Positions 5,244 to 60,878 of a stretch of DNA of 62,079 nt are shown here, in pieces. Below the pieces are notes generated by a model. That model was given only the letters and a program-made list of their open reading frames with translations, searched no databases and was not told where the DNA came from. The stretch covers positions 1,191 to 63,269 of the forward strand of contig JAURFP010000004.1 in NCBI GenBank assembly GCA_030834275.1, read 5' to 3'. Within the stretch, counting starts at the first letter, position 1. Every line of letters starts with the position of its first letter. Both the position numbers and the translations under genes were made by a program. This stretch comes from Burkholderiales bacterium. Lineage in GTDB: Bacteria > Pseudomonadota > Gammaproteobacteria > Burkholderiales > Eutrophovitaceae.

Positions 5244-5301
5244 TATGCGACGACTAACAATACCATCGCAAAATTCCTCTGAACCGCATTGAGGTATTCA
5301 A

Positions 5302-8287: not shown

Positions 8288-8748
8288 TCGTGAGGCCACT
8301 GCCCTGTTCTACGTGATACATAACCACGCCAGATATGAATGCCTGCCAAAACCGGAAATCCAAGACCGAGGACCCAATGAAGAATAGACGTGAAATCTCG
8401 AATTGACTCGCCGCTTAGGTAATATAAAAAATATCCAGATAGACTCAGCACCGTCATTACTGTGAAAAAAATACTACCGGTAGCAATATTACGATTCAGA
8501 GCCCAAGCACGTGGGATATGTCCAGGAAGAACCGAACCAAAACCAATGAGCATCAGGGCGGCTGAAATTCCATGTACTTTTAGTAACAGAGGTTCTAGCG
8601 GATGATGTAAGAGCCCGAATTCTCCCTCCACTCGCACAAAATGATGAAGGTATACCCATATAATCCCCGACAAGGTGAGCACGCCACCTACGATGTAGAG
8701 ATAAACACGCTGAATATTTCCAAGCCTCATTGCAGTTGTCGTCATCAC
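8284..8748 (-). CDS. Four-TM membrane protein with intramembrane His residues (flavinylation-associated, cytochrome b-like)
   Basis: Four hydrophobic segments with His in LKVHG, PGHI, ILHW and GIHI; directly downstream of apbE. Confidence 0.7.
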   Translation of the reverse strand: MMTTTAMRLGNIQRVYLYIVGGVLTLSGIIWVYLHHFVRVEGEFGLLHHPLEPLLLKVHGISAALMLIGFGSVLPGHIPRAWALNRNIATGSIFFTVMTVLSLSGYFLYYLSGESIRDFTSILHWVLGLGFPVLAGIHIWRGYVSRRTGQWPHE

Positions 8749-8749
8749 A

Positions 8750-9556: not shown

Positions 9557-10079
9557 AAGTCGCGAGCACGCGGTTGACGCCTTCAGTAATGTGCCGGCAA
9601 GAGAGCGTCGCGCCCGAAATATTTTTTATCTCATCCCCAAGACCAAAAACTTTCCCTGGTTTTCTTCCCTTAAATTGAGCTCGCCACGCTGGATTTCTGA
9701 TCTCGTAACCATAGCTTTCTCGATATACAAGTATCTCAATTTGAAGTACCGTACCATCCTTATCAAGGGCAATCGCATAGGTGATGAACTGATGCTTTCC
9801 AATCACCTCATCAACTACAAAATATCCAGAGGGTTCCCCGTCTCGAAAAACTTTCCAAACTGGCAAGACATCTCTTTCGACCTGCACCTTTGAGGCCACC
9901 TTTATAGCATTACGGACGGCACCATCAAGACTTAGATCCGCGCGCTCAAAGTGAGCGGATTTACCAAACATAATTTTTTGCGCCTGCTCAACTGTCATGT
10001 ACTCCGCCGCAAAAACTGGTGACGCCGCAGCGATGCCGACTAGTGGGAGCGCTGCAATTTTGATCCAATCATGTTCCAT
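9531..10079 (-). CDS. Exported FMN-binding (flavinylation target) protein
   Basis: Signal peptide ending VFA; NISGATLS matches the [D/N]xx[S/T]GA[S/T] flavinylation motif; YRESYGYEI. Confidence 0.88.
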   Translation of the reverse strand: MEHDWIKIAALPLVGIAAASPVFAAEYMTVEQAQKIMFGKSAHFERADLSLDGAVRNAIKVASKVQVERDVLPVWKVFRDGEPSGYFVVDEVIGKHQFITYAIALDKDGTVLQIEILVYRESYGYEIRNPAWRAQFKGRKPGKVFGLGDEIKNISGATLSCRHITEGVNRVLATYDLLLRDH

Positions 10080-10092
10080 AAAAATTTACGTC

Positions 10093-11073
10093 TCAGATAC
10101 TTGTGGACAGGACGACCTTACCACTAACTTTTTTTTGCATTAAATCATTTAATGCACTAGCAGCTTGAGACAAAGGATAAACCTTATGGATGTGAGGCCG
10201 AACAAGGCCCTTCTCATACATCTGTACAAGCTCGCGATTATTTTGGTTATTTAGATCTGACTCCCTTCGAGTAAACTCACCCCAGAACACACCTACAATA
10301 GAGCAGTTTTTTAATAGCGCAAGGTTGAGCGGGATTTTTGGAATTGACCCTGCCGCAAATCCGACAACTAAGAATCTCCCCTTCCACGCCATATCTCGAA
10401 TAGCCAACTCAGATGTGGCTCCGCCAACCGGATCATAAATAACGTCCACACCCCTGCCGCCTGTTATTTCCTTAACACGCTGCCGGAAATCCTGATCAGC
10501 GTAATTGATTAGATCATCTGCACCGTTCGATTGACAAATCTGGAGTTTTTCCTCGCTAGAGGCAGCGGCGATTACCCGAGCTCCCATCGCTTTGCCCAGT
10601 TGGACTGCAGCAAGCCCCACGCCACCAGAGGCGCCAAGTACGAGTAGCGTTTCGCCAGATTGAAGCGCGGCACGATCTTTCAACGCGTGGTAACTCGTAC
10701 CGTAGGTCAGTATAAAAGCTGATGCTTCTTCAAAATTCATTTGATCTGAAATCGGGATAAGCCGATCAGAACCGACCACCATTTCCTCGGCAAATCCTCC
10801 CCAAGTGTTAAAAGCAATGACTCGATCACCGACCTTTACATTAGTGACACCAGTCCCAACGCTTTTGATCACCCCAGCAACTTCCCCCCCGGGGGAAAAT
10901 GGTAGATCTGGTTTGTATTGATACTTTCCCTGAATGATTAACGTATCTGGAAAATTGACACCACAAGCTTTTACCGATAACAAAACCTCACCCTCAGCAG
11001 GAATCGGTGACTCCACCTCCTCAACGACCAATGAATCAGGCATCCCTAAAGTCTTACATAACACCGCACGCAT
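10093..11073 (-). CDS. NADPH:quinone oxidoreductase (MDR/zeta-crystallin family)
   Basis: GVNFPD, PFSPGGE, GASGGVG, DPVGG. Confidence 0.9.
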   Translation of the reverse strand: MRAVLCKTLGMPDSLVVEEVESPIPAEGEVLLSVKACGVNFPDTLIIQGKYQYKPDLPFSPGGEVAGVIKSVGTGVTNVKVGDRVIAFNTWGGFAEEMVVGSDRLIPISDQMNFEEASAFILTYGTSYHALKDRAALQSGETLLVLGASGGVGLAAVQLGKAMGARVIAAASSEEKLQICQSNGADDLINYADQDFRQRVKEITGGRGVDVIYDPVGGATSELAIRDMAWKGRFLVVGFAAGSIPKIPLNLALLKNCSIVGVFWGEFTRRESDLNNQNNRELVQMYEKGLVRPHIHKVYPLSQAASALNDLMQKKVSGKVVLSTSI

Positions 11074-11130
11074 TCACATTCCTCTATCCATTTTCATTTA
11101 ATTCCCACAATCGACGATTCTTTAACTTCA

Positions 11131-12204
11131 CTAACTTCCAGCACCTCTCAGAATTCGCTCAACCTGTCGCCACCCTGCCTCAGCCATCGGCTTGGCACGC
11201 CTGCCTTGTTCCTCCGCATGCGCACTCGCTGCAGTACCGTCTTTCACTCGACCCATAATCCCCTGCAAGATTCCAGCAAGTCTGAACATGTTATAGGCGA
11301 TATAAAAATCCCAATCCTTGATGACATCTCGCCCCGTCTGTTCGCAGTAACTCTCTACGTATGCTTGCTCCTCTGGAATACCCGTAGTTCGATGATCCAC
11401 GCCATTGATTCCCCTAAATTCACCAGGTGTTAACCGCCAATACATACAGTGATATGCAAAATCCGCTACAGGATGACCTAGGGTTGAGAGTTCCCAGTCA
11501 AGTACCGCCAGAATTCGAGGCTCTGCCTTATGGAAAATAACATTATCAAGGCGATAGTCGCCATGAACAATCGATACATCCTCATTCGTCGGAATGTTTT
11601 TTGGCAGCCAATCAATCAAGTTCTCCATCGACTCAATATGCTCTGTTTCTGACGCTCGATACTGCTTCGTCCACCGCGCTATTTGTCGCTCGATGTAATT
11701 TCCAGGACGACCGTAATCCTCCAAACCAACAGCTACATGATCAACAGAGTGGAGCGCCGCAATAACTCGATTTAATTCTTTGTAAATTTGATTTCGCTCT
11801 TCCGAACTACTATCAGGCAGCGTTCCATCCCACATCACTCTCCCATCTACAAAATCCATGACGTAGAACGCAGTGCCCAAGATTGAGTCATCCTCACAGA
11901 GGCAAAATGCTTTGGCTACCGGCACATCGGTTTGGTTAAGCGCCGATATGACTCGATACTCACGATCTACCGCGTGCGCTGAGGGCAGCAACTTCCCTGG
12001 CGGCTTACGGCGCAGGACGTATTTACCGCTAGGTGACGCCAACAAAAACGTGGGGTTTGACTGCCCACCGCTAAACTGCTCAACAGTGAGTGGGCCTTGA
12101 AAACCTGGGATTTGCTGCCGGAGATAATTCTCTAATTTTTCTGTGTCGAATTGATGCTTCTCATCAACAGCTTTTGTTCCTACAAACTGGTCATGCATGT
12201 TCAA
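11131..12204 (-). CDS. APH-family phosphotransferase (ACAD10/11 kinase domain-like)
   Basis: GGQSNPT, LRRKPPG, SAHAVDRE, HGDYRLDN, LDWELS. Confidence 0.88.
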   Translation of the reverse strand: MNMHDQFVGTKAVDEKHQFDTEKLENYLRQQIPGFQGPLTVEQFSGGQSNPTFLLASPSGKYVLRRKPPGKLLPSAHAVDREYRVISALNQTDVPVAKAFCLCEDDSILGTAFYVMDFVDGRVMWDGTLPDSSSEERNQIYKELNRVIAALHSVDHVAVGLEDYGRPGNYIERQIARWTKQYRASETEHIESMENLIDWLPKNIPTNEDVSIVHGDYRLDNVIFHKAEPRILAVLDWELSTLGHPVADFAYHCMYWRLTPGEFRGINGVDHRTTGIPEEQAYVESYCEQTGRDVIKDWDFYIAYNMFRLAGILQGIMGRVKDGTAASAHAEEQGRRAKPMAEAGWRQVERILRGAGS

Positions 12205-12277
12205 TCTTCTCCTATACCCCTAATTATCGCATGCTCTCGACGTGCTAGACTGGTGGACTGAAATTCTAGGTAAAGCG

Positions 12278-13120
12278 ATGAACATTTTCAAAGGAAAGGT
12301 AGCGGTAATCACCGGTGGAGCGAGTGGGCTCGGATATGCTATGGCCTCACGTTTCCTGAAAGAAGGAATGCGTCTTGTGATTGCGGATATTGAAGAGCCA
12401 AGGCTCCAAAGCGCGGTACGCCAACTGAAAGATGCTGGTGGAAAAGTACTAGGAGTAGCGTGTGATGTCTCACAGGGCTCTGACGTTGAAAATCTAGCTA
12501 AAAAGACACTTGAGGAATTTGGCAGTTGCCATATTATTTGCAATAACGCGGGCGTGGCACCCAGTGGTGTTATTTGGGAGCACACAACGGAAGATTGGCA
12601 ATGGGCAATGGGGCCCAACGTGTGGGGAGTGATCCACGGCGTTAGAGTATTCACTCCCATTCTCATTGAGCAAAACGAGCCCGCGCATATAGTGAACACA
12701 GCTTCCGTATCGGGATTGCTATCTTTCGCCGGAATGGGGCTTTATTGTATGACCAAGCATGCAGTTGTTACCATGACGGAATGCCTCAAGCATGATCTCT
12801 CATTAGCAACAGAGCTCGTTAAATGTTCGGTGTTGTGCCCCGCTTACGTCCCAACACAAATTGCAGAATCAGAAAGAAACCGCCCAAAAAATCTTACAAG
12901 TAATAGAACGAAAACAGACGAAGATATTGCAAGAGAAAATAATCTCAGAAAGGCTGTGATCTCTGGAAGAATTTCAGCTGAAACAGTTGCCGATCAAGTT
13001 CTGACGGCAATCATTGATGAAAAGTTCTACATTCTTCCCCATGAAAAAATAAAAGGGGCCATAGAGTCACGAATGCAAGATATTCTACAGGACAGAACGC
13101 CTTTAGATACATCCAGATAA
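12278..13120 (+). CDS. Short-chain dehydrogenase/reductase
   Basis: TGGASGLG, NNAGV, NTAS, YCMTK; ATG at 12278 preferred over the ORF-track start 12242. Confidence 0.88.
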   Translation: MNIFKGKVAVITGGASGLGYAMASRFLKEGMRLVIADIEEPRLQSAVRQLKDAGGKVLGVACDVSQGSDVENLAKKTLEEFGSCHIICNNAGVAPSGVIWEHTTEDWQWAMGPNVWGVIHGVRVFTPILIEQNEPAHIVNTASVSGLLSFAGMGLYCMTKHAVVTMTECLKHDLSLATELVKCSVLCPAYVPTQIAESERNRPKNLTSNRTKTDEDIARENNLRKAVISGRISAETVADQVLTAIIDEKFYILPHEKIKGAIESRMQDILQDRTPLDTSR

Positions 13121-13201
13121 CGGGCATCAATTGAGTAGAGATTTTCTCGTTTCAGAGATAAAATGCGCGCCCTAAAGATAAACGATTAACGAGAAAAATA
13201 A

Positions 13202-14806
13202 GTGGAAGCGCCTGAACTCCAAATAAAAGAAACCCGTAGACGCCGCACGTTTGCAATTATTTCGCACCCTGACGCGGGGAAAACAACTCTTACTGAGAAA
13301 CTACTTCTATTTGGTGGAGCAATCCAAGCTGCGGGTACCGTCAAAGCGAGGAAATCCAGCAAGTATGCAACTTCCGACTGGATGGCAATTGAGAAAGAAA
13401 GAGGAATATCCGTTGCAAGCTCAGTTATGCAGTTTGAGTACAAAGATTGTGTTATCAATCTCCTCGATACCCCAGGTCACCGAGATTTCTCGGAAGATAC
13501 ATACCGCGTTCTTACTGCAGTGGATGCCGCACTCATGGTTATTGATTGCACGAAAGGCGTTGAACCTCAGACTATCAAACTACTTGAGGTTTGTCGCCAG
13601 CGGAACACTCCAATCATCACCTTCATCAACAAGCTCGACCGGGAAGGTAAGCATCCTTTAGAGTTAATTGACGAAATTGAGAGCGTAATGAACATTCATT
13701 GCGCGCCTATTACTTGGCCCGTTGGAATGGGAAAGCGGCTGGGTGGTATCTACGATATCGGCAAAGACGAGATACTCGTATTTGACCCGGAGGCAAGTGA
13801 TCAAAAAAATGTGAAAGTTCTAAAGGGTTTGGGAGACGATGCGCTTCGCGGAAAATTCAGCTCGGAAATTGATGATACAGAGGAGGAGATTTCACTGATT
13901 AAAGAGGATGGCCGAGCATTTGACACTGAACACTTTTTAGAGGGTGAGCTCACCCCAGTTTTTTTTGGTTCCGCAATGAATAATTTTGGGGTGGTCAAAG
14001 TCTTAGACGCGCTCGTCGAGGAAGCGCCAGCGCCGAAACCCAGAAAATCAATAGAAAGAACCGTGGCGCCTGAAGAAGAAAATTTCTCGGCGTTTGTCTT
14101 TAAGATTCAAGCAAACATGGACCCGCAACACCGAGATCGTATAGCGTTTCTGAGGATATGCTCCGGCCGATTCAATCGTGGAATGAAACTCACTCATGTC
14201 CGGAGCGGTAAAGACATACGAGCAAGCCAGGTAGTGAGCTTTCTATCTCAAAGACGAGAGACCGTCGAAGACGCGTGGCCAGGCGATATCATTGGACTCC
14301 TCAATCATGGAAGCATCGATATTGGCGATACCTTCACCGTTGGTGAAAAACTTAATTTCACAGGAATACCTTACTTTGCTCCCGAACTTTTCCAAGGAGT
14401 AACTTTAAGGGATCCACTCAAGAGCAAGCAATTACAAAAGGGCCTTCAGCAGCTAGGGGAGGAAGGGGCGATACAGGTGTTCAAGCCGATTGTCGGAAAC
14501 GAAATCATCCTTGGAGCCGTAGGTCTACTCCAATTCGAGGTTGTGGCACACCGACTGAAAGCGGAGTATGGAGTTGACGCGACGACACGCTCGATGAGCT
14601 TCTATGGTGCACGTTGGGTTACCAGCGAGAATAGTAGGAAACTTATCGATTTCGAAAAACAATTAGCGGGTAACCTGGCTCACGATGCCTCTGGAAGCTT
14701 GACGTATATGGCAACATCAAAACCCAACCTTGACTTAACAATGGAGCGTTGGCCAGATATTAAATTTCACAGTATCCGAGAACACGCACAAAAACTCGCA
14801 AGCTAG
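13202..14806 (+). CDS. prfC: Peptide chain release factor 3
   Basis: [40 protein letters not shown]. Confidence 0.97.
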
Positions 14807-48637: not shown

Positions 48638-48730
48638 AAGCTACATCTTGAGGATTGTGCAACCTTGTTTACAACATAGAGTGGCTACCTGGTTTAAAAT
48701 ATAGGTTCTATTTACTAACAAGGCTTGCGG

Positions 48731-49936
48731 ATGGAAAAACTATCGTCTCTTAGCTCGACTGGGTGGCTCAATGGTCTAATTGACCTTCCATGGTGGGGCT
48801 ACATTTTGGTGGCACTAGCCTTCACCCACATCACCATCGCCTCTGTCACCATTTACCTACACCGTCATTCTGCCCACAGAGCATTAGATTTACACCCGAG
48901 TGTTGCGCACTTCTTTAGATTTTGGCTATGGCTCACAACAGGAATGGTGACCAAAGCGTGGACTGCGATTCACCGCAAGCACCATGCGAAGTGTGAGACA
49001 GAAGAAGATCCGCATAGCCCACAGATTGCTGGTCTCAAGAAAGTCGTATTAGAGGGCGCAGAGCTTTACCGAGATGAAGCAAAAAATAAAGAGACACTGG
49101 AAAAATACGGACATGGAACTCCAGATGACTGGGTCGAAAAAAATGTTTACTCTGCGCATGAAGCGCTTGGTATTTGGGCGATGTTTGTCGTTGACATCGT
49201 GCTCTTTGGAGCCATCGGCATAACTATTTGGGCTATACAAATGTTGTGGATCCCAATTTTTGCGGCGGGAGTTATCAATGGCGTTGGACACGCACTTGGC
49301 TACCGAAACTTCAACGTGAACGATGCAAGTACTAACATTGTTCCGTGGGGAATACTGATTGGTGGCGAAGAGCTTCATAACAATCACCATGCCTACGCGT
49401 CGTCGGCGAAGCTCTCGTCTCGTTGGTTCGAGTTTGATATCGGTTGGCTTTATATAAGAACGCTTGAAATTTTGGGACTCGCGAAAGTTAAACGTCTGAC
49501 ACCAAAAATTGAGCGTTCATCCCAGAAGGAAAACGTGGACGCCGGAACTCTACAAGCGATTATCACCCATCGTTGGGATGTACTCGCGAAGTTTTCAGAT
49601 TCGATCAAATCAACGTGTATCGAGGAGATCCGAAAGATCGCCGAGCAACATCAATTCACCAAACCAGATATTCACAGATGGTTAAAACTCGATAAAAAAT
49701 TCATAAATCCCTCGGAAATTGACCAGGTGGAGCGATTCGCTGAGAAGAGCTCAGTTCTAAAGACCGTCATTACGATGAGAGAGGAGCTCACTCAGCTTTG
49801 GGCTAAGTCATCCGACTCTAAAGAGCACTTGCTGGAACAGCTTCGCGACTGGTGTAGGCGCGCGGAACAATCTGGCATATCGCCTTTGAAAGAGTTTGCG
49901 AACTCGTTGAAGGGCTACGCAATAGCAACGAGATAG
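48731..49936 (+). CDS. desA: Delta-9 acyl-CoA (fatty acid) desaturase
   Basis: His boxes HRHSAH, HRKHH, HNNHH. Confidence 0.9.
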   Translation: MEKLSSLSSTGWLNGLIDLPWWGYILVALAFTHITIASVTIYLHRHSAHRALDLHPSVAHFFRFWLWLTTGMVTKAWTAIHRKHHAKCETEEDPHSPQIAGLKKVVLEGAELYRDEAKNKETLEKYGHGTPDDWVEKNVYSAHEALGIWAMFVVDIVLFGAIGITIWAIQMLWIPIFAAGVINGVGHALGYRNFNVNDASTNIVPWGILIGGEELHNNHHAYASSAKLSSRWFEFDIGWLYIRTLEILGLAKVKRLTPKIERSSQKENVDAGTLQAIITHRWDVLAKFSDSIKSTCIEEIRKIAEQHQFTKPDIHRWLKLDKKFINPSEIDQVERFAEKSSVLKTVITMREELTQLWAKSSDSKEHLLEQLRDWCRRAEQSGISPLKEFANSLKGYAIATR

Positions 49937-50176: not shown

Positions 50177-50413
50177 TTAGATAGCCTCGCCGCGAGCTCT
50201 CATTTCAGCCAGCACGACATCAACGCCTTTTTTATCGATCGTTCTAAGTCCCGCTCTAGAAAGTCTAAGCTTAACCCATCGGTTTTCGCTCTCGACCCAG
50301 ATTCTCTTCACCTGCAAATTGGGTAAGAAGCGACGCTTTGTCTTGTTGTTTGCGTGGGAAACGTTGTTTCCACTCATCGGCTTCTTGCCGGTTATCTGAC
50401 ATACTCTAGACAT
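50177..50413 (-). CDS. rpmB: 50S ribosomal protein L28
   Basis: [10 protein letters not shown]...[19 protein letters not shown]; start at 50413 gives 78 aa. Confidence 0.97.
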
Positions 50414-50640
50414 GGTTGTAAGACCTTTATTCAATAAAATCCGCTATTTCGGAAGCCCGACTTTATATCATATTTTTGGGCCTTTGATCAAGGACAGATG
50501 CCATCTCATGACGTGCGGCGCTAGGTGTGCGTCGCAATATACTTTTTCTACATACTGAAAATGCCAAAAATCCCCGCAACTATATGTTTTACTGAGTAAA
50601 ATTTTTCCAAAAGAAACATGAAAAAAACTTCAAATTTGGC

Positions 50641-50669
50641 TTGAGAAGTCTATTCTCCCATAGTAGGCT
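50641..50669 (+). promoter_or_regulatory. Putative sigma70 promoter of the lactonase-ABC cassette
   Basis: TTGAGA-17 nt-TAGGCT, followed by a hairpin-rich leader of about 140 nt and a GAGGAGGAG RBS. Confidence 0.45.
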
Positions 50670-50816
50670 AGTACAGCTTGTATTAGCTGCATAGCCCTCC
50701 TAAAACTAGAAAGCGAAGAGGGCTAAGTATCAGGGCATCTTGGGAATTACTTTCCGACCCGAAAAAGTCAGTCAGGTTCTCAGGGCGCATGTTTCAAAAT
50801 GAGGAGGAGTAGAGTT

Positions 50817-51677
50817 ATGAAGAAGGTTTTTGCTTCACTACTTGGCGCAGTTGCACTTACCGTAGCGGCTAGTGCTTCAGCTGGCGTCAGCAAAGCTTAC
50901 TGGGCAACCAGTGGTATGTTTGGTCCATTCCCAATTAACGGTTTGATTCCATCCATCCCTGCTGACCAGGTTAGGGACGTAACGATCCCAGTGAGTATGT
51001 GGATCGTTGAGCATGATAAAGGCATCGTGCTTGTTGACACAGGTAACAATATCGCAATTACAGAAGGCTGCGAGGCTTACTGGAATAAAGGTACCTGTGA
51101 CTTCATGAAACCAAACCAGACAAAGGATACAACGATTACTGGCTGGCTCAAGAAACTTGGTTACAAAAATGAGGACGTACGAGTTGTTATAACTTCGCAC
51201 ACCCACTTGGATCACATGGGTAACATGAAGTCTTTCCCAAATGCAATCCATGCAATCCAAAAAGCCGAGCTATACCAGGGATGGTGGCCAGAGACCTTCC
51301 AGGGACGTACTGGCGAGCCACCATTCGTTCGTAAGGATATCGAAGGCACACAGATGTTCAACTTCCTAGAACTCAAAGGCGATTATGACGTGTTTGGTGA
51401 CGGATCAGTTGTGATCCTCAGCACACCAGGTCACACACTTGGCCACCAGTCAGTTCAGGTTACTATGGATTCAGGCAACAGAATCTTGCTTGCTCAAGAT
51501 GCTATCTGGATGCAAGAGAACCTTGATGGTCACCCAGCTGGTTTGAACTTCAGCGTTCAGGAGTACACCAATTCAGTTAACCGTCTGAAATTCATGCGCG
51601 ATCTTCAGGGCATACCGCTCTTCATGGGTCACGATGAGAATCAGTGGAAAGCTGGCGGTGATCGCTGGTACAGATAA
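50817..51677 (+). CDS. Secreted metallo-beta-lactamase-fold hydrolase, N-acyl homoserine lactonase family
   Basis: Sec signal MKKVFASLLGAVALTVAASASA; LVDTG, SHTHLDHMG, TPGHTLGHQS, QDA, MGHD. Confidence 0.85.
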   Translation: MKKVFASLLGAVALTVAASASAGVSKAYWATSGMFGPFPINGLIPSIPADQVRDVTIPVSMWIVEHDKGIVLVDTGNNIAITEGCEAYWNKGTCDFMKPNQTKDTTITGWLKKLGYKNEDVRVVITSHTHLDHMGNMKSFPNAIHAIQKAELYQGWWPETFQGRTGEPPFVRKDIEGTQMFNFLELKGDYDVFGDGSVVILSTPGHTLGHQSVQVTMDSGNRILLAQDAIWMQENLDGHPAGLNFSVQEYTNSVNRLKFMRDLQGIPLFMGHDENQWKAGGDRWYR

Positions 51678-51708
51678 GAATAATCTGTATTGATTTTTGA
51701 AGTACCTG

Positions 51709-51736
51709 AACCCCCCTTCTCAGGGGGGTTTTTTTT
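51709..51736 (+). terminator. Intrinsic terminator between the lactonase and the ABC ATPase
   Basis: AACCCCCCT-tctc-AGGGGGGTT followed by a T run (T8 in total). Confidence 0.85.
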
Positions 51737-51757
51737 GAGACTAAAAAAGCTACAGAA

Positions 51758-52693
51758 ATGATTTCCTTAGAAAATGTATCGAAACGCTACGGCAGCAAAG
51801 AGATAATTCATAACGTCTCCTTCAATGTGAACAAAGGAGAAATCGTTGGGTTCTTGGGCCCCAATGGCGCTGGAAAGACCACAACGATGCGTATGATCGC
51901 AGGATTTACCGCGGCAACTTCCGGCAGAGTAATGATTGCCGGACACGACATGGCTGACCAAAATTACGAAGCAGCCAAAAAGATTGGTTACCTACCCGAA
52001 CATCCCCCGCTATACGACGTGCTAACGGTTCGCTCCTACCTGAAATTTTGCGCCGAAGCAAAACACATCGCAAAAGCAAGAATCCCGTCCGAGCTAGATC
52101 GCGTGATGCAGGCGTGTCAATTGGATGCAGTGGTTAATCGTGAGGTCTTCAAGCTCTCCAAGGGCTATCGGCAAAGGGTTGGGCTCGCGCAAGCGATTCT
52201 GGGTGATCCAGAAGTTTTATTGTTAGATGAGCCGACGGCTGGGCTAGATCCTGGACAGATTCAAGAGACACGAGAAGTTATTCGTTCTTTTGGCGAGAAT
52301 CATGCAGTGCTTTTAAGTACGCATATTCTTCCAGAGGTAACACTTATTTGTAAGCGCATCGCAATCATCAATGACGGCAGAATATTAGCTGTCGACTCTC
52401 CTGAATCTTTGCAGTCAGCGGTTGCACAATCGAATAAAGTAACGATCACCGCGATTGCCGACAAGGATGAACTTAAGAAAACACTCGTAGCGATTGATGG
52501 TGTGACGGATGCTATGGTATCCGAGCCTTCCCAGAACACCGGCGTAGTGAAGGCGGTGTGTCATGTCGCTGCTGAGGGCCGAATCGAATCAAAGATCGCG
52601 AAAGAAATAGCCACTCGATTCGAACTACTTGGCCTCGAGAAAGAACAACCAAACCTAGAGAACGTATTTTTACGCTACGTTGGAAAAAACTGA
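51758..52693 (+). CDS. ABC-2 type ATP-binding protein (GldA-like)
   Basis: GPNGAGKTT, GYLPE.PPLY, LSKGYRQRVG, STHILPEV. Confidence 0.9.
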   Translation: MISLENVSKRYGSKEIIHNVSFNVNKGEIVGFLGPNGAGKTTTMRMIAGFTAATSGRVMIAGHDMADQNYEAAKKIGYLPEHPPLYDVLTVRSYLKFCAEAKHIAKARIPSELDRVMQACQLDAVVNREVFKLSKGYRQRVGLAQAILGDPEVLLLDEPTAGLDPGQIQETREVIRSFGENHAVLLSTHILPEVTLICKRIAIINDGRILAVDSPESLQSAVAQSNKVTITAIADKDELKKTLVAIDGVTDAMVSEPSQNTGVVKAVCHVAAEGRIESKIAKEIATRFELLGLEKEQPNLENVFLRYVGKN

Positions 52694-52709
52694 AATTAGG
52701 AATATTGAA

Positions 52710-53417
52710 ATGAGCGGTGTATCTGCAATCTACAAAAAGGAATTGGCGAATTACTTTAACGCGCCGATTGCTTATTTCATCATCGCGGTTTTCCTTTTAG
52801 GAACCGGATACTTTTTTATCTACAACATGTTTATGACTGGCTCAGCCTCGCTCGAGATCACATTGCAGAACATGGGCATCCTACTGATTACGGTCGTCCC
52901 TGCGATCACGATGCGTCTATTCTCCTCCGAATACAGCTCCAAAACGATTGAGTTACTGATGACGCTTCCCATACGGCCATGGGAAATTGTTGTAGGAAAG
53001 TTTCTTGGTGCCGCATCCATTTTCCTATTGATGACGCTTGCCACGACGATTAATTTGATCCCACTGTTCTTGTACGGAAACCCAGATCTGTTGGCTACCG
53101 TTTCGGGTTATCTAGGGTTCATCCTCCTGGGACTCGCGTGTATCGCGATTGGTGAATTGTTTTCCTCGCTCACGCAAAATCAAATTATCGCTGCGCTATT
53201 AACTTGGCCTGTCTTACTTGGCTTCTGGTTTGTTGGGCACTTTAAGGTATTCCAGCAAACCGGATTTTTGCGTAGCTTCTCAGACTACCTATCGTTTACC
53301 GGTCACTACGCGAATTTTATTCAAGGACTTGTTCGGTCGGAAAGCGTTGTGTTCTTTTTAGCAACGATTTCTATCGCCTTAATCCTCAATACTAGTTATC
53401 TGAAAGGGAGGCGATAG
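52710..53417 (+). CDS. ABC-2 type permease (GldF-like)
   Basis: KKELANYFNAPIAY, PAITMRLFSSE...TIELL, SSLTQNQIIA. Confidence 0.88.
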   Translation: MSGVSAIYKKELANYFNAPIAYFIIAVFLLGTGYFFIYNMFMTGSASLEITLQNMGILLITVVPAITMRLFSSEYSSKTIELLMTLPIRPWEIVVGKFLGAASIFLLMTLATTINLIPLFLYGNPDLLATVSGYLGFILLGLACIAIGELFSSLTQNQIIAALLTWPVLLGFWFVGHFKVFQQTGFLRSFSDYLSFTGHYANFIQGLVRSESVVFFLATISIALILNTSYLKGRR

Positions 53418-53419
53418 TC

Positions 53420-55057
53420 ATGAACCAATCTTTCCGAAACCTTATCTTCTTACTGGTTGGCATCGCGCTCGTTTTCCTCTCGAGGATCTTTGATGCCATC
53501 TTGATTGAACAGCCATTCGTAACAAATGGCCTACTTATTCTCGGAATTATTTTTGCACTCACCGGCGGAATAAAAATGCGATCCGAGATCGCTGAGCTCT
53601 TCAAGAAACGTAGAGGAGAGCGACTGCTCCGTACCATTGGCCTCATCGGAATTGTTGTCGCGCTTTGTAATCTTTCCATTCGTTTTCCGGCCAGAATGGA
53701 TATGACCGACGCGCACCGCCATTCTTTGTCTACGAAAACTACCGATATGTTGGAACGATTAGAGACACCCGTTCACATTACGTTTTTCCATGATCAACTC
53801 ATGACCGAGACGGTCGATTTCTACGAGCAAATGGCCGCGATTACCGACAAGGTGACCGTTGAATTCCATGATCCGATGCTCAATCCGTCTATGGCGCGAG
53901 TCAAGGGAATCGAGTTTGCGGGTACTGCAATAATGGAGAGCGAAGATCGTAAAATTCAAGTCCACTCCCCTCTCGAGGTAGATATTGCAAATGCGGTGTT
54001 AAAAATATCCCAAGGAATCCAACAGACCGTATGCTTCTTAGATGGTCATGGTGAACCTGACCCTTTCAGTCTGGAGAAACACGACCACATGGAGGGGACT
54101 GGAGGTGATCACTCACACGGTTTGGGTAGCAGGATTTTGATTCATGAGCGGCACGGAATGGCAAAACTTCGAACAAGCCTTGAGAGCATGAACTATGTTG
54201 CTCAGAAGGTGAGCCTTGTTCAGGGTACGGCTTCGCTCGATGCCTGTGACTTGTTTATCGTAGCAGGACCTCAAACGCGGCTCATGGATGCAGAAGTAAA
54301 AGCGATCGATGAGTATCTCAATGCTGGTAAGAATGTCTTACTCATGCTAGATCCGTTTATCGAGACTGGACTCGAGCCAATTATCAAAAAACTGGGTGTG
54401 ATTTTAGATAACGACCTCGTGATTGATCCAAAGAGTCATTTCTGGGCAGATGTGTCATCTCCTGCGGTAACACAATACAATCGCCACTCGATAACGGAAG
54501 ACATCCCTCTGACTTTCTTCCCAGGGGCTCGATCACTTTCACCAACAGAAAACCGAGTTCCAGAGACTTATGTTCGACCACTTGTTAATTCATCAACGGA
54601 GAGCTTCGGGGAGACAGACCAGTCGACTGCGTCATTTACGGAAGGTGTAGATACTAAGGGTCCACTGACCATGATGGTAATCATTGAGAGGGATCCGTCG
54701 CGCATTGACAAGATGCGACCGTTACTAGAACAGACCAGAAACGAGGAAGTGAGCGCGACACAATCGACAACCAATTCAGAAGATGCAGTGAAAACATCTC
54801 GAATCGCGATCTTTGGTGACTCAGACTTTGCCACTAACTCATTCTTCCACGTGCTCGGTAACGGAAAACTCATTCTCAATACGATTAACTACTTGACCGT
54901 TCAAGAGAACCTGATCGGGCTAGAACCAAAGACGATGGATATCCCGCAGGTAACGCTTACCAACGAGCAAATGAAAGGGGTGTTCTTTATGTCTATCCTA
55001 CTCATCCCTTCTTTGATGGCGCTGATTGGGATTGCAGTTTGGTGGAGACGTAGATAA
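53420..55057 (+). CDS. GldG-like ABC auxiliary membrane/periplasmic protein with His-rich insertion
   Basis: DMT...SLS, FLDGHGE, VAGPQ, GDSDF..N, C-terminal TM ending WWRRR. Confidence 0.82.
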   Translation: MNQSFRNLIFLLVGIALVFLSRIFDAILIEQPFVTNGLLILGIIFALTGGIKMRSEIAELFKKRRGERLLRTIGLIGIVVALCNLSIRFPARMDMTDAHRHSLSTKTTDMLERLETPVHITFFHDQLMTETVDFYEQMAAITDKVTVEFHDPMLNPSMARVKGIEFAGTAIMESEDRKIQVHSPLEVDIANAVLKISQGIQQTVCFLDGHGEPDPFSLEKHDHMEGTGGDHSHGLGSRILIHERHGMAKLRTSLESMNYVAQKVSLVQGTASLDACDLFIVAGPQTRLMDAEVKAIDEYLNAGKNVLLMLDPFIETGLEPIIKKLGVILDNDLVIDPKSHFWADVSSPAVTQYNRHSITEDIPLTFFPGARSLSPTENRVPETYVRPLVNSSTESFGETDQSTASFTEGVDTKGPLTMMVIIERDPSRIDKMRPLLEQTRNEEVSATQSTTNSEDAVKTSRIAIFGDSDFATNSFFHVLGNGKLILNTINYLTVQENLIGLEPKTMDIPQVTLTNEQMKGVFFMSILLIPSLMALIGIAVWWRRR

Positions 55058-55060
55058 GAG

Positions 55061-55678
55061 ATGTCCATTAAAAACAAGAACAATATATTCATCTGGATAA
55101 TACTTGGAGCCTTAGTTCTCGTAATTGGATATCTTAAGTGGCAGGACTCCCAGAAAGTTTCGCAGATCCGAGACCCGCTTTGGGTGGATGAGCGGTCGCT
55201 TTTGCCTCTACCGATTGAGAATATCGCCGCACTTGAGATTGGTTATCAAGGAAATCTTCACCGGTTCGATCGCGATAGTCAAGGGACATGGTTCTATCAC
55301 GCGCACGGGGGGTCTACAGGTGTGATGACTGAGCATGGGCACGTAGCCGATGCGGCGGCTGGAGACGCTATTGCAAAATTTTTAGTGGGGCTCAATAACG
55401 CGAGGATTGAGCGTTTTCTTGAGACGGATGAAAAGTCCGCATATGGGGTCATCAATCCTTCTTTGATATTACTTGCTTACAAAGATGCTGAAGGATCTCC
55501 GTTAGCCCAGTATGCGTTTGGAGATCAGGCCCCCGATGGACTGAGTCGGTACGTATTGATTATGGGGCGAGACGACGTGGTGTTGATCGCAGATTATCAA
55601 CATAAAAATCTGATTGATCTAGTCGATGCGGCACAATCAATGGTCGCCCCCCCGCCCTCACAGATATCGAATGACTAG
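55061..55678 (+). CDS. DUF4340-like membrane-anchored periplasmic protein with His-rich loop
   Basis: N-terminal anchor; W..., AD, YG...P and G..AP....Y pattern; follows the gldG-like gene. Confidence 0.65.
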   Translation: MSIKNKNNIFIWIILGALVLVIGYLKWQDSQKVSQIRDPLWVDERSLLPLPIENIAALEIGYQGNLHRFDRDSQGTWFYHAHGGSTGVMTEHGHVADAAAGDAIAKFLVGLNNARIERFLETDEKSAYGVINPSLILLAYKDAEGSPLAQYAFGDQAPDGLSRYVLIMGRDDVVLIADYQHKNLIDLVDAAQSMVAPPPSQISND

Positions 55679-55750
55679 GCATCAAATCTGAGGATGTAAA
55701 ATACGGTAGACTCGGATTGGTATTGTTTTCGCAAGGCTAAAGCCTCAGTG

Positions 55751-56935
55751 ATGCACAAAAAGAAAACACGGATACTCCTTGGCATAACGGGCGGTGTCGC
55801 TGCTTACAAGAGCGCAGATCTTGCTCGTCTTTTCATCAAGAATGATATTGAGGTCCAGGTCGTGATGACCGAGTCTGCAACGCAATTCGTCTCACCAACC
55901 ACGCTTCAAGCCCTCACAGGCCGACGAGTGCACACAGACATGTGGGATGAATCCATTGATAACGGAATGCCACATATTGAACTATCGAGAGCGTGTGACC
56001 TGATCGTCATCGCCCCTGCTACCGCCAATTTCATGACGAAGGTGACGAGTGGTCAAGCGGACGACCTATTGAGCACCCTCTGCCTTGCACGAGACTGTCC
56101 ACTTGCGATAGCACCAGCCATGAATCGCCAGATGTGGGAGAACGCTGCGACTCAGCGAAACCTGAAACAGTTACGATCTGACGATGTCACAATCATTGGA
56201 CCTGACAGCGGAGATCAAGCGTGTGGTGAGGTTGGCGAAGGCCGTATGAGTGAACCAAACTTTATCTTCGATGAGGTCGTAGCATTGCTTCAACCCAAGC
56301 TTTTAGCAGGAAAAAAAGTGGTGATCACAGCGGGCCCCACCTATGAGCCTATTGATGCCGTCAGAGGTATAACCAACTCGAGCTCTGGGAAGATGGGCTA
56401 CGCCGTTGCACAAGCTGCTCGTGAAGCTGGAGCAGACGTGACGATCGTCTCGGGTAAAACTTCACTCGCAACTCCAACCGGCACGAAGAAAGTACCTGTT
56501 ATAACGGCGCAAGAGATGTACGATGCAGTCATGTATCACGTATCGGATGCAGATGTTTTTATTTCCGTTGCGGCAGTTGCAGACTTCAGAGTAAAAAATC
56601 CCGATGCGAACAAGATTAAGAAAACTAAAAGCGGACTCGCCCTGGAGTTTGAAGAAAATCCGGATATTCTCGGTACGGTTGCCAAGATGAATCCGACTCC
56701 GTTCTGCGTTGGCTTTGCAGCTGAGAGCCAAGACCTCGAAAATTACGCTAAAGAAAAACGTGTCGAACGCGGTATACCGCTCATTGCCGCGAACCTCGTA
56801 CAAAACGCGCTTGGGAGTGACGAAAACGAATTACTTCTGATTGATGACAGTGGCTCGCACAAAATCCCAAAAAGCTCAAAGATCAATCAGGCTCGAGAGT
56901 TAATCAAACACATTGCAAAACTAACGGAAAAGTAA
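55751..56935 (+). CDS. coaBC: Phosphopantothenoylcysteine decarboxylase / phosphopantothenate--cysteine ligase
   Basis: [38 protein letters not shown]. Confidence 0.97.
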
Positions 56936-57456: not shown

Positions 57457-57939
57457 CTACTCAGGAAAAACCATCTGCTCTTCTACTTTGTAAGGATCAG
57501 CGATCTCTCCCGCAGCAACTCTTCGCGCCTCTTCCCATCTTAAGAAGGTCAGCACACTGAGGATCTCCTCGTAGGACATCGTCGTGCCAAATGCGCCCAT
57601 CGTTCCACCAAGCGAGCGGTTTTGGATACCACCGGCAATCGTTGCGTAGATCGATGCGTTGGTGTTTGCTGTATAAACAAACTTTCCGCAACTTAAACAA
57701 GGACCTTTTCCACCGTGCCCGTCACCGCCGTGACAAAATGAGCAACGCTGTGCATATTTTCCTTTTCCGAATTCAACGATCTCCATATTTTCGGTTGGCA
57801 CCTCGAGATCTGTCTCATTCATCTTGTGGCCCGCGTAAGCCGAGTCAATAACACTTGAGTTGGTCATGACGCTCACAGCCACCACTGCTAAAGCAGCGAG
57901 TCCCAATCGGCTAAAAAGCGACGAAAACTTAATTACCAT
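57457..57939 (-). CDS. Periplasmic monoheme cytochrome c, probable electron acceptor of the PQQ dehydrogenase
   Basis: Signal peptide; CSFCH, a second CLSC, MGAF axial Met; GGGGAGG RBS supports ATG at 57939. Confidence 0.88.
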   Translation of the reverse strand: MVIKFSSLFSRLGLAALAVVAVSVMTNSSVIDSAYAGHKMNETDLEVPTENMEIVEFGKGKYAQRCSFCHGGDGHGGKGPCLSCGKFVYTANTNASIYATIAGGIQNRSLGGTMGAFGTTMSYEEILSVLTFLRWEEARRVAAGEIADPYKVEEQMVFPE

Positions 57940-57968
57940 TACGTGAAGCCTCCCCATTAATTATTTTC

Positions 57969-58814
57969 TTATTCCGCGTCGAGTGGTGCGAAATAAGGCA
58001 CACCATACTTCTCAACGATACTCTTAATTGTACCGTCATCAAGCAGCTTCTGGATAGCTTCATCGATGAATTCTTTGAATGCTTTATCTCTTTTTCTAAC
58101 AAGAAAATTTAAATTCCACTGCTGACCCTCTTGCGGCTTAAAACCTTCGGAAATTTTAAACACCGCCTCAGGATGATTTTTCTTTGCTACTACAGGAACC
58201 GTAGCCCAAACGAGAGCTGCATCAACTTGACCGTCGACCATCCCCTTCATGGCTCTCGCGTTGTCTGGGTACACTTCACGCTTAACTCCGTGCGTAAAGA
58301 GCCAATCATCCATTGGAGTAGACATCTGCACTCCGATACGGATATCTGCTGCCGCCAACTCTTCTATACTGTTCATTCCAGCTGCAGTATTTTGCACGAC
58401 CAGCACGTAACCGATAGCCATGTATGGATTAGAGAAGGCCAACTGACCCATCAGGATATCGTCATCACCATTATCGCCAACCCCTGCAAAAATATCACAT
58501 CGCCCCTTGAGAATAGAGTTTCTCAATGCACGCGACATACCACCTCGCGTACCGGTATCGGCCCAATACATCTCCAAGGCCATACCGCCAGCCTTTGCAA
58601 TTTCCTGCATAATTTCCACATCGAACCCTGGAGGATTGGTGTTCTTGATCGAATACGGGAAAGTATACGGATCCGCACACGCTACAATTTTTTTCCTCGC
58701 TTGCGAACGCTCTAGGGTATCGAGCGACTCTTCTCCCTCTTGCGCAAAAGATGACGTCGTATAACCTGTCGCAAGGACACTAGCTGCTAATACACTTATG
58801 AAACGCTTAAACAA
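57969..58814 (-). CDS. MxaJ/XoxJ-like quinoprotein dehydrogenase-associated periplasmic binding protein
   Basis: Signal peptide; ACADPYTFPYS, GFDVEI, GRCDI, YGVP; lies between the dehydrogenase and the cytochrome; TTG start with GAGGAG. Confidence 0.85.
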   Translation of the reverse strand: MFKRFISVLAASVLATGYTTSSFAQEGEESLDTLERSQARKKIVACADPYTFPYSIKNTNPPGFDVEIMQEIAKAGGMALEMYWADTGTRGGMSRALRNSILKGRCDIFAGVGDNGDDDILMGQLAFSNPYMAIGYVLVVQNTAAGMNSIEELAAADIRIGVQMSTPMDDWLFTHGVKREVYPDNARAMKGMVDGQVDAALVWATVPVVAKKNHPEAVFKISEGFKPQEGQQWNLNFLVRKRDKAFKEFIDEAIQKLLDDGTIKSIVEKYGVPYFAPLDAE

Positions 58815-58913
58815 TTTACTCTCCTCAAAACGCGTTTAACTTAGAAACCTCTATTATATTCGGATTAACGAACGCGTCCGAAGTTCACCCAGATAAATAG
58901 CTTCTATAAAAAA

Positions 58914-58939
58914 TAAGGGAGGGCAATTGCCCTCCCTTA
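58914..58939 (-). terminator. Intrinsic terminator after the PQQ dehydrogenase
   Basis: Perfect palindrome TAAGGGAGGGCAATTGCCCTCCCTTA followed by a U tract on the minus strand; a second small hairpin at 58951-58969. Confidence 0.8.
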
Positions 58940-58983
58940 ATCGAACTACTTCTACGACTACTTCGTAGAGCGTTACCCGGAGA

Positions 58984-60726
58984 TTAGTCTACGGTGAACG
59001 CCATCAAAGCACCACCTTTGGTGTGTGTCTTGAGGAAGTTTGCGTAGTAAAGTGGCCAGATACCACCACCACCAGCACCGTATACGATAGCAACGTACTG
59101 CTTACCGTTAATTGTGTAGGTTGTTGGGTTACCGTGGACACCTGAGCCCATCTGGAATGACCAGAGGTGCTCACCAGTCTCATCATTAACTGCATTGAAT
59201 CGGCCGTCTGGATCGCCATAGAATGCCAATCCACCACCGGTGGTCAAGAGACCACTAGTTGCAGGCCAGCTCTGTGACTTGGTCCATACGAGATCACCAG
59301 TAGCAGCATCAAACGCCTTGATCAAACCAGCACCAGCATTGAAGGTAATAACCTTAGCGCCGAGGTACCACTCACCACGCTTCCACTCCATTTTCTTGGC
59401 CTGGAGGTCCATGGTGAAGTTGTAGATCGGAACATATGCCATCTTGGTTCGGAGGCTGACTGAGAGTGGGTGCCACTCTTTACCACCGTCAAGTGATGGA
59501 GCAATGTTCTGGGTTACGCGGTCATATACAACATCCATCTCTGGGTAGTTGAATACTGGACGGCAGTTGTCCTTAGCTGGAGAAATTGGCTCACTGATCC
59601 AGTTAACGTCTTGCATTGGAGTTACCCAAACGCACTTAAGAGCGTTACCAGATTTGGTCTTAATCGTGTTGCGACGATCAATACCGTAGATGTGGCCGTT
59701 TCTGTCACCGTGAACAAAGATCTTCTTACCACCTAAGTCGATTTGTACGTTCTCGTTAACACCGTCGTAATCGTATGGATCATTTGGTGTGTAGTTGAAG
59801 TACGCATCGATCTTACCGCTATCAGCGTTTACGACGATAGCAGAGTTCGAGAAGAGGTTGTCCCCTGGACGAACGTGACGGTCAAAGTCAGGTCCTGGGT
59901 TACCCACTGGCCAGAATAGCTGGTTGGTTTCTTTGTCGTAAGAACCGGTAATCCATGTTGAACCACCGCCGTACTTCCAAGAATCACCACCCCACGTATC
60001 GTTACCAGGCTCACCTGGTCCAGGAATTGTGTAGGTTTTCCATGCTGGAGCGCCGGTATCTGCATCGATAGCAGCTAACCAACCACGAACACCGTACTCA
60101 GCACCTGCGGTACCGAACACAACCTTGTTGTTAACAACCAAAGGCATGATCGTGAAGGTTTCAGCATATGTGTAGTCACCAACTTTCTTGTCCCAAACAA
60201 CATCACCGGTTTGGTTATCAAGAGCAACTACGTGTGCATCAAGAGTAGCTAAGTAAACTTTGTTCTTGTAAACAGCTACACCTCGGTTCACCACGTCACA
60301 GCACAGTTTAGGGAACACGTCACCTGGAAGCTCACGCTCGTACTTCCAGAGAATGTCTCCAGTCTCACCGTTTACAGCCATGACTCGGTTAAATGAAGTC
60401 GTCACGTACAGTGTGCCGTTAACTGCAACTGCCTGGCTGTCCTGACCTTCAAGAATACCGAATGACAAGTTCCAAGCTGGCTTGAGTGACTTGACGTTAT
60501 CACGGTTAACTTGTGACAACGCGCTGTAACGGGTCATTTGGTAATCTTTACCGTAGTGCAACCAGTTTTGTGAATCTTTGTCAGCGTTCATGAGCATGTC
60601 ATTCGTGACATAGTTTGGATAGAGCTGTGACTCGAGTCTATCCACACCAATGGCAGAAGCCATGCTGGAAGCGCCTAACAAAGCAAGAGCAGCGGTAGAA
60701 ACCGCAACGCGCTTAAAGTTATGCAT
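58984..60726 (-). CDS. PQQ-dependent dehydrogenase, methanol/ethanol family, lanthanide-type active-site motif
   Basis: Signal peptide; CCDVVNRG vicinal Cys, GAEYGVRG, GNP, RPGDN, DYDGVNE, W-docking repeats; GGAGG RBS supports ATG at 60726. Confidence 0.93.
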   Translation of the reverse strand: MHNFKRVAVSTAALALLGASSMASAIGVDRLESQLYPNYVTNDMLMNADKDSQNWLHYGKDYQMTRYSALSQVNRDNVKSLKPAWNLSFGILEGQDSQAVAVNGTLYVTTSFNRVMAVNGETGDILWKYERELPGDVFPKLCCDVVNRGVAVYKNKVYLATLDAHVVALDNQTGDVVWDKKVGDYTYAETFTIMPLVVNNKVVFGTAGAEYGVRGWLAAIDADTGAPAWKTYTIPGPGEPGNDTWGGDSWKYGGGSTWITGSYDKETNQLFWPVGNPGPDFDRHVRPGDNLFSNSAIVVNADSGKIDAYFNYTPNDPYDYDGVNENVQIDLGGKKIFVHGDRNGHIYGIDRRNTIKTKSGNALKCVWVTPMQDVNWISEPISPAKDNCRPVFNYPEMDVVYDRVTQNIAPSLDGGKEWHPLSVSLRTKMAYVPIYNFTMDLQAKKMEWKRGEWYLGAKVITFNAGAGLIKAFDAATGDLVWTKSQSWPATSGLLTTGGGLAFYGDPDGRFNAVNDETGEHLWSFQMGSGVHGNPTTYTINGKQYVAIVYGAGGGGIWPLYYANFLKTHTKGGALMAFTVD

Positions 60727-60878
60727 TAATACACCTCCCATTAAAAACGAAATCTCTAAAAACTAGACATCTTCGTTTGTAGGTTTTTGTTTAAATATCT
60801 AAACTGCGTAAAGCATAAATCTGTGAATCGCAGAACCAGAGTACTGTGCTTCTAAAATTAATCCTTTACGACGTGTAA

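Follow-up and report, generated by a model that had tools for sequence, protein, structure and literature searches.

A candidate periplasmic metal-handling module: conserved pairing of a predicted secreted metallo-beta-lactamase-fold hydrolase with a histidine-type GldG/DUF4340 ABC system

The ATP-binding cassette (ABC) system NosDFY, together with NosL, is believed to spend ATP on the transfer of metal from a donor to the copper enzyme nitrous oxide reductase, and not on moving a solute. NosL, the metal donor considered in the comparison below, is the subject of PMC8457098. The ABC system GldA-GldF-GldG belongs to the gliding apparatus of Flavobacterium, and the parts of the GldG literature that we covered deal with gliding and type IX secretion and assign no function outside gliding bacteria. 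Here we describe a gene cassette on a stretch of 62,079 nucleotides (the window) from a Burkholderiales bacterium of the Eutrophovitaceae (GenBank assembly GCA_030834275.1, contig JAURFP010000004.1, positions 1,191 to 63,269 of the forward strand), in which the gene for a predicted secreted hydrolase of the metallo-beta-lactamase fold (MBL) precedes genes for GldA-, GldF- and GldG-like proteins and a short DUF4340-like protein. In several lineages the MBL is the constant partner of this machine, the GldG-like component of which carries conserved histidines. The cassette may represent a conserved periplasmic metal-handling module around this one enzyme, namely an ATP-driven, NosDFY-like machine that loads metal into the MBL, a reading of the sequences that we hold tentatively and with slightly less than even confidence.

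The likeness to NosDFY/NosL lies in an ABC-2 ATPase and permease combined with a periplasmic accessory, the genes of which adjoin that of a periplasmic metalloenzyme. Unlike in NosDFY/NosL, the accessories are a GldG-like protein, resembling GIFT and GATase1 folds, and a DUF4340-like protein instead of the NosD beta-helix, the client would be an MBL-fold hydrolase with a Sec-type signal instead of nitrous oxide reductase, and the possible donor is a HupE/UreJ-2 permease instead of the NosL lipoprotein. According to Pfam and NCBIfam none of the five cassette genes encodes a NosD or NosL domain. Thus the module would work most like NosDFY/NosL without being a member of that system. The three core components are homologous to GldA-GldF-GldG; the scores remain, however, below the respective cut-offs (TIGR03522, 271.3 vs 402.6; TIGR03518, 124.9 vs 288.5; TIGR03521, 68.3 vs 389.85), and the histidine insert, the MBL and the short histidine-bearing DUF4340-like protein are features of the cassette and not of GldAFG. 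The best NCBIfam matches of the cassette proteins are AttM/AiiA lactonases, GldA, GldF and GldG, each under its equivalog cut-off. The canonical four-gene ABC-2/GldG/DUF4340 cassettes, one of which is encoded elsewhere in the same genome, share the ATPase, permease and GldG-like core but have no histidine insert, MBL or HupE/UreJ-2 gene (0 of 21). No account of the present cassette was found in the literature searched on GldG-like/DUF4340 ABC systems and HupE/UreJ.

The pairing of the MBL with the machine was analysed in 79 loci that were fetched with an alignment of GldG-like proteins, one genome per species; at least seven of them are the same contigs as loci of the window's family, so that the two sets overlap. 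The region of the histidine insert is included in 77 loci, and 75 of these carry the histidine motif (His-type loci). Of the His-type loci, 67 have an ATPase gene and are preceded by 1000 nt or more of DNA; in all 67 the MBL gene lies upstream, within 400 nt in 65 loci and at a distance of 2.3 and 2.7 kb in the exceptions L056 and L089. The carriers are labelled as Betaproteobacteria/Burkholderiales, Rokubacteria/Methylomirabilota, Ca. Entotheonella, Alpha- and Gammaproteobacteria, a few labels of metagenome-assembled genomes (MAGs) looking wrong, and the genes outside the cassette vary by lineage. As for the family of the window itself, 20/20 loci with available DNA have the genes arranged as MBL-ATPase-permease-GldG-DUF4340, with rpmB on one side and coaBC on the other; two more loci are cut by contig ends. 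The retrieval of loci by pattern replaced a class-wide co-occurrence table, since the MBL is too rare for the latter: a match at E ≤ 1e-30 was detected in two of 400 other genomes of the class (34-38% identity). The cassette system is rare overall. The retrievals, including the reverse one described below, kept the best 80 of several hundred candidates, so that the counts apply to close and medium relatives and not to the family as a whole; related genomes are moreover non-independent samples.

The MBL was absent from both insert-less loci (L113 and L114), which carry a long canonical DUF4340 protein (323 and 451 aa; 107 and 236 bits). A paralogue control comprised 21 insert-less GldG cassettes, 20 from relatives and the genome's own (G000:C43), of which about 5-6 kb each were scanned: the histidine motif, the MBL, the HupE/UreJ-2 gene and, using a profile of the short type, the short DUF4340-like protein were each found in none of the 21. 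The reverse retrieval with the MBL alignment yielded 80 loci, 75 of them new. All 15 new MBLs sharing at least 46% identity with the window's MBL have the ABC genes downstream, although one contig ends inside the ATPase gene, and all six new MBLs of a divergent clade sit with the divergent form of the cassette. The other 54 new MBLs (29-39% identity, many phyla) were found without the machine throughout. The original prediction had expected histidine-rich variants to co-occur with the secreted MBL; because this holds in both directions (67/67 forward; 0/54 distant MBLs; 0/21 and 0/2 in the controls), the opposite situation, in which such variants commonly occur without the hydrolase, was not encountered.

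By maximum likelihood, the linked MBLs fall into two pure and well-supported clades. A single origin of the linkage was considered but is not supported, as the label needs two changes on the careful tree, and of 200 bootstrap trees only 4% permit a single change. Three assemblies (L033, i.e. G008:C100, L063 and L079) contain a main-clade and a divergent-clade cassette in tandem, with about 30% identity between them. The two cassettes do not share an MBL, ATPase, permease or His-type GldG but possess one of each, which in L033 holds for the HupE/UreJ-2 gene as well. Furthermore, three tandem MBL paralogues lie upstream of a single ABC machine in two Ca. Entotheonella loci (L056, 153-3016; L068, 2329-5188), with a gene for an ankyrin-repeat protein (3092-4525) between the MBLs and the ATPase in L056. 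In MAG contigs of L044, L078, L101, L118 and L162 the cassette genes are split into several tblastn pieces; all parts are present and in order, so that these look like frameshift-type assembly errors rather than decay.

The histidine-rich insert that had been noticed shortly after the GHGE motif of the GldG-like protein was confirmed as residues 220-246, eight residues past GHGE. Its signature reads HxHxE-x(2-9)-HxH[GSD]-x(~10)-HG. In the 54 His-type sequences, which diverge to about 30% identity, H221, H223, E225, H231, H233 and H245 are conserved to 100%, and E219, G234 and H340 to 94%, 91% and 98%, respectively; every one of these residues, H340 included, is missing from the three insert-less sequences of that alignment. 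The ligand-type signature of the protein thus comprises six histidines and two glutamates, located in the insert directly past GHGE plus H340. G209, H210 and E212 are invariant in 57 GldG-like sequences, and the PF09822 score, the GHxE motif and the flanking membrane helices identify the protein as a member of the ABC_transp_aux family. The wider GldG-like family is represented by 16441 cluster representatives at E ≤ 0.001. Among the best 150 of them the histidine motif occurs in 26, so the His type is a minority, and 115 of the other 124 have GHxE with an average of 0.67 histidines in the next 40 residues. Two His-type representatives, P0008 (679 aa) and P0011 (713 aa), have about 200-240 extra N-terminal residues and may be permease-GldG fusions.

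The histidine-rich segment that had been reported for the DUF4340-like protein was likewise recovered, at residues 79-94. W77 and H82 are invariant and H94 is conserved to at least 90% in 45 aligned sequences. The strict motif is present in 41 of 76 loci, whereas an alphaproteobacterial group has longer and looser histidine-rich runs instead. The protein belongs to DUF4340 (PF14238), the match, however, spans only positions 11-94 of the 183 positions of the profile, which makes it a short form. The histidine stretches of the two proteins are evidently not a product of chance. In the AlphaFold2 (AF2) models the GldG-like protein (mean predicted local distance difference test, pLDDT, 82.6; helices 3-88 and 515-544) has a pLDDT below 50 at residues 220-243 of the apo model, and the DUF4340-like protein (mean pLDDT 87.1) has one below 50 in the loop 84-91, as would be expected for loops that become ordered only upon binding of a metal or a partner. 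Foldseek matches of the GldG-like model are IFT52 GIFT domains, an oligosaccharyltransferase subunit and ThuA-like folds; a Foldseek search with the DUF4340-like model gave no match to a solved structure at E ≤ 0.001. An alignment comparison revealed no ligand residues in the permease that are specific to the His-type subfamily, which fits a motor rather than an ion path.

Furthermore, a gene predicted to encode a HupE/UreJ-2 permease (PF13795, about 355 aa) comes after the DUF4340-like gene in members of both cassette clades; of the 61 His-type loci that extend far enough downstream, 30 have it. The "five-gene cassette" of the original prediction thus holds for the window, where the stop codon of the DUF4340-like gene (55678) is followed by the start of coaBC (55748) without a HupE/UreJ-2 gene, while elsewhere the unit often has six genes. 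The cassette HupE/UreJ-2 proteins have a signal peptide, a mature N-terminal histidine, a periplasmic domain of about 150 residues and a membrane motif HI..G.DH. The same build is shared by the recently described Ang-1/Ang-2-HupE/UreJ-2 "anglerase" permeases (PMC12537917, Nat Commun 2025) and by the unlinked copy mentioned below. According to that publication, the N-terminal domain of one HupE/UreJ-2 protein bound Cu and Ni with dissociation constants of 74 nM and 220 nM and was proposed to feed metal ions to the permease. The sequence of the cassette protein matches no solved chain, the Ang-1 entry included, as a phmmer search against all solved chains gave nothing at E ≤ 1. The text of PMC12537917 makes no mention of the other genes of the cassette (lactamase, ABC transporter, DUF4340, gliding). 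The sixth gene appears to provide independent support for the metal theme beyond what the original prediction contained, and the cassette offers a genomic setting for the anglerase permeases.

The only HupE/UreJ-2 gene of the genome analysed here is not linked to the cassette (G000:C56, L116; 5860-6969, minus strand, 157.9 bits). It adjoins a gene for a cation diffusion facilitator (CDF) efflux protein, and genes for CusF, a multicopper oxidase and an outer-membrane efflux protein lie 3-5 kb further. The region 4013-13561 of this contig constitutes a metal-resistance neighbourhood that also contains a cytochrome c gene. Downstream of the permease gene are an open reading frame (ORF) of 304 aa that could not be annotated (4973-5887) and a gene for a SoxY-SoxZ fusion.

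The MBL is a member of the metallo-beta-lactamase superfamily PF00753, with a score above the gathering cut-off and the complete ligand set. No variation at H134, H136, D138, H139, H212, D234 and H278 was seen among 54 aligned MBLs from cassettes or among the 53 unlinked relatives. Of the curated families, the protein matches best the AttM- and AiiA-type lactonases and 4-pyridoxolactonase, far under the equivalog cut-offs (160.4 vs 390 bits for the AttM-family lactonase model NF045700; 123.4 vs 375 for NF045699), and the closest solved structure is the N-acylhomoserine lactonase 9khq, aligned over the full length (E 7.6e-29). With AiiA, AttM (AiiB, BlcC) and 4-pyridoxolactonase the protein has the fold and all seven metal ligands in common. 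It differs from AiiA/AttM by its signal peptide, its obligate tie to an ABC machine and clade-specific residues including a DTGNN motif and E240; specific to the linked MBLs are S38, G42, P54, N83, N84, D114, K119, R170, E240 and W290. At the position D234+3, which we take to correspond to the catalytic Tyr194 of AiiA, the window and the main clade have Trp (QDAIW) and the divergent clade has Tyr (GDNVY); the tyrosine that follows the bridging aspartate in AttM/AiiA is hence not present in the window's protein. Signal peptides were judged by eye and with a crude hydrophobicity score. The N-terminal K/R stretch, hydrophobic core and A-x-A are also seen in aligned homologues, and the score was positive in 19 of 21 cassette-linked MBLs.

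An involvement of the cassette in metal handling for the MBL is suggested by four findings taken together: the partner enzyme is invariant and has a two-metal site, both periplasmic subunits carry invariant residues of ligand type, a metal permease recurs beside the cassette and the motor is generic. In the presumed mechanism the ATPase would drive a conformational change through the permease into a periplasmic GldG/DUF4340 assembly, which would hold metal on its histidine sites and load, exchange or proof-read the two-metal site of the newly exported, folding MBL. Where present, the HupE/UreJ-2 permease with its N-terminal-histidine domain would act as metal feeder, and the MBL would be made in excess over the machine. 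The core claim of the original prediction, namely that the ABC complex may deliver metal to the MBL or release it, is retained here in this conditional form; the binding of metal by the histidine sites, the contact between MBL and machine and the direction of metal flow we infer from the genes. A more specific variant, which seems rather improbable to us, is that the insert of the GldG-like protein builds a metal pair mimicking the site of the MBL and passes this pair to the apo-MBL at the expense of ATP, the metal arriving via HupE/UreJ-2; the ligand sets compared for this purpose are HxHxE, HxH and H in the insert, and HxHxDH, H, D and H in the MBL.

How periplasmic metalloenzymes that are exported unfolded acquire the correct metal is largely unresolved outside the copper enzymes, and a loader that is driven by ATP and dedicated to a binuclear hydrolase would, if true, add a new example. 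The more specific variant described above, if true, would enable the cell to equip a Sec-exported enzyme with a metal that competes weakly (Ni, Co, Fe or Mn), where the enzyme would otherwise take up periplasmic Zn or Cu. In that case an MBL-fold enzyme would for the first time have a metallation machine of its own, and a GldG/DUF4340 ABC system its first defined task. The widespread orphan ABC-2/GldG/DUF4340 family gains an always-adjacent partner enzyme and a mutable ligand-type signature, which makes the mechanism directly testable.

Several observations weigh against a metal-loading machine. The HupE/UreJ-2 gene is optional, being absent from 31 of the 61 loci; the genome G010 (97% complete) has the cassette without any PF13795 match, and five relatives have a HupE/UreJ-2 gene without the cassette. 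The fifth gene of the divergent clade lacks the histidine motif (76 loci scanned), and the comparison of alignments revealed no extra ligand residues in the linked MBLs relative to their unlinked relatives. By the crude hydrophobicity score mentioned above, 26 of 54 unlinked relatives of the MBL, about half, also look secreted, yet they have no machine, so that secretion alone does not demand such a helper. Upstream of the MBL gene no conserved palindrome or 10-mer and no metal-regulator box were found in 20 loci of the family, and a search with Rfam gave no riboswitch but only two sub-threshold leader matches, located on the terminator-like hairpin that separates the MBL gene from the ATPase gene. 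Given this hairpin, the MBL could be a separate transcription unit. A similar hairpin is present in 51 of 67 MBL-ATPase gaps (L036-L112, several phyla), compared with 50 of 2010 shuffles (2.5%) and 9 of 67 gaps on the opposite strand. Its presence is conserved but its sequence is not, and this points to partial termination or to transcription units that are separate. In favour of the metal-loading reading, such a hairpin would be expected if a client is made in excess over its machine.

The same observations were weighed under other explanations. A role in metal acquisition or homeostasis, in which the histidine sites of the GldG/DUF4340 proteins catch periplasmic metal and either pass it to HupE/UreJ-2 or buffer it, while the MBL hydrolyses a lactone or ester chelator, is unlikely but deserves consideration. 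It would account for the invariant histidine sites of the GldG-like protein, the occurrence of the HupE/UreJ-2 gene in 30 of 61 loci and the position of the unlinked copy near metal efflux genes, and in PMC12537917 HupE/UreJ-2 proteins are proposed to fish metal ions into a permease. However, the invariant partner is the MBL (67/67) and not HupE/UreJ-2, of which G010 has none. Furthermore, no TonB-dependent receptor or recognisable chelator-synthesis enzyme is encoded among 89 flanking proteins from 17 loci, and the hydrolysis of ATP by an exporter-type ABC-2 system would be left unexplained. ABC-2 transporters are mostly exporters, and the MBL is nearest to N-acylhomoserine lactone (AHL) and butyrolactone lactonases. 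The machine might accordingly export or extract a lipophilic lactone, an ester or an envelope lipid that is processed by the MBL (quorum quenching, detoxification, envelope remodelling), the histidine cluster being a binding or structural element, and the hairpin would fit an abundant enzyme with a scarcer transporter. Such a role appears improbable, since it accounts neither for the six histidines and two glutamates of the disordered insert and the histidine loop of the fifth protein nor for the recurrent HupE/UreJ-2 gene, the permease lacks subfamily-specific residues that would mark a new cargo, and no conserved biosynthesis genes were detected nearby (flanking proteins of 17 loci).

ATP-driven release has a precedent in systems of the CcmAB type, and the original prediction had included release of the enzyme as an option. 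The ABC-2/GldG/DUF4340 proteins might then hold the MBL, release it or move it toward the outer membrane or the cell surface, gripping its metal site with their histidines, and the one-to-one pairing of the MBL clade with the machine clade would agree with this. The MBL, however, lacks a lipobox, an anchor and any additional domain, and the first strand of ordinary lactonases is where its N-terminus aligns; the cassette contains no conserved outer-membrane component and the link to HupE/UreJ-2 would be unexplained. We thus regard such a role as very improbable. It is scarcely credible that the genes are mere neighbours whose order was inherited by descent without a functional tie, even though the hairpin separates the MBL from the ABC genes and the surroundings (desaturase, rpmB, coaBC, dut) are also conserved within the window's family. 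The pairing outlasts a complete turnover of the flanks across phyla, is two-directional and absent from the 21 paralogous cassettes, and MBL and machine have been duplicated as a unit in the tandem cassettes.

The features of the cassette in the window are listed in the following table.

Table. Coordinates of the cassette genes, motifs and hairpin in the window, with the basis of each assignment
Feature	Position	Strand	Basis
MBL hydrolase, lactonase-type, predicted secreted	50817..51677	+	PF00753, 57.4 bits (cut-off 22.7)
Predicted Sec-type signal peptide of the MBL, MKKVFASLLGAVALTVAASASA	50817..50882	+	read from translation
HxHxDH metal-ligand motif of the MBL (H134, H136, D138, H139, ORF numbering)	51198..51215	+	alignment
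Terminator-like hairpin, stem of 10 bp (6 G-C pairs) followed by a T-run	51708..51739	+	in the 80-nt MBL-ATPase gap
ABC ATPase, GldA-like	51758..52693	+	PF00005, 113.7 bits; TIGR03522, 271.3 bits
ABC-2 permease, GldF-like	52680..53417	+	PF12679, 46.8 bits; TIGR03518, 124.9 bits
GldG-like periplasmic accessory protein	53420..55057	+	PF09822 (ABC_transp_aux), 80.2 bits (cut-off 34.7); DUF7088
Histidine insert of the GldG-like protein, KHDHMEGTGGDHSHGLGSRILIHERHG	54077..54157	+	motif in 75/77 loci
Short DUF4340-like protein, one N-terminal membrane helix	55061..55678	+	PF14238, 31.8 bits (cut-off 25)
Histidine segment of the DUF4340-like protein, YHAHGGSTGVMTEHGH, W-x-[YF]-H ... HxH	55295..55342	+	alignment of 45 sequences

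All five ORFs that had originally been placed between 50817 and 55678 on the plus strand were found at these positions, each with a match in Pfam. The ORF of the MBL opens at 50799; the ATG at 50817, also chosen as start by the original prediction, is probably the true one because a GAGGAGG sequence lies 8 nt upstream and the homologues begin at MKK. The start of the permease gene overlaps the stop of the ATPase gene by 14 nt, the GldG-like gene begins 2 nt after the permease gene and the DUF4340-like gene 3 nt after the GldG-like gene. The cassette is flanked by rpmB (minus strand) upstream and by coaBC-dut downstream.

An XoxF/Mxa-type cluster near the cassette, at 57457-60741 on the minus strand of the window, encodes a PQQ (pyrroloquinoline quinone) methanol/ethanol-family dehydrogenase (549 bits, cut-off 480) together with binding and cytochrome proteins that are MoxJ-like and cytochrome cL-like, respectively; the cluster does not accompany the cassette in other lineages. 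An assignment of the cassette to the PQQ-linked ABC family TIGR03864, prompted by these nearby genes, was ruled out by its score (152.5, cut-off 302.25) and by the fact that the cassette travels without XoxF-like genes in other lineages. At 48725-49936 on the plus strand the window encodes a DesA-family fatty-acid desaturase with a C-terminal "DesA/ISL3 alpha bundle tail", which Pfam reads as a transposase fragment; since NCBIfam has a model for the tail this is a known architecture.

Sequence of the locus is present in contigs of four RNA libraries (X15, X16, X17 and X19). Single contigs span the MBL-ATPase gap in X15 (51258-52255), X16 (51471-51972) and X19 (51375-51791), which shows neither transcription nor a single transcript. 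Depth was recorded in 30/30 bins for X15, 27/30 for X16, 25/30 for X17 and 12/30 for X19, the gaps being uninformative. In the region 50400-55800 of the window the word depths in the four runs amount to about 130-1800 for MBL contigs and are mostly below 25 for contigs of the ABC genes, although genes cannot be ranked by the depth of contigs and RNA libraries of this kind may also contain DNA; two contigs that begin in the MBL gene, one of X15 (229.6) and one of X16 (232.5), extend into that of the ATPase. The organism and the locus also occur in estuary, marsh and marine metagenomes, and given this occurrence and the contigs from the RNA libraries the locus can be studied in nature.

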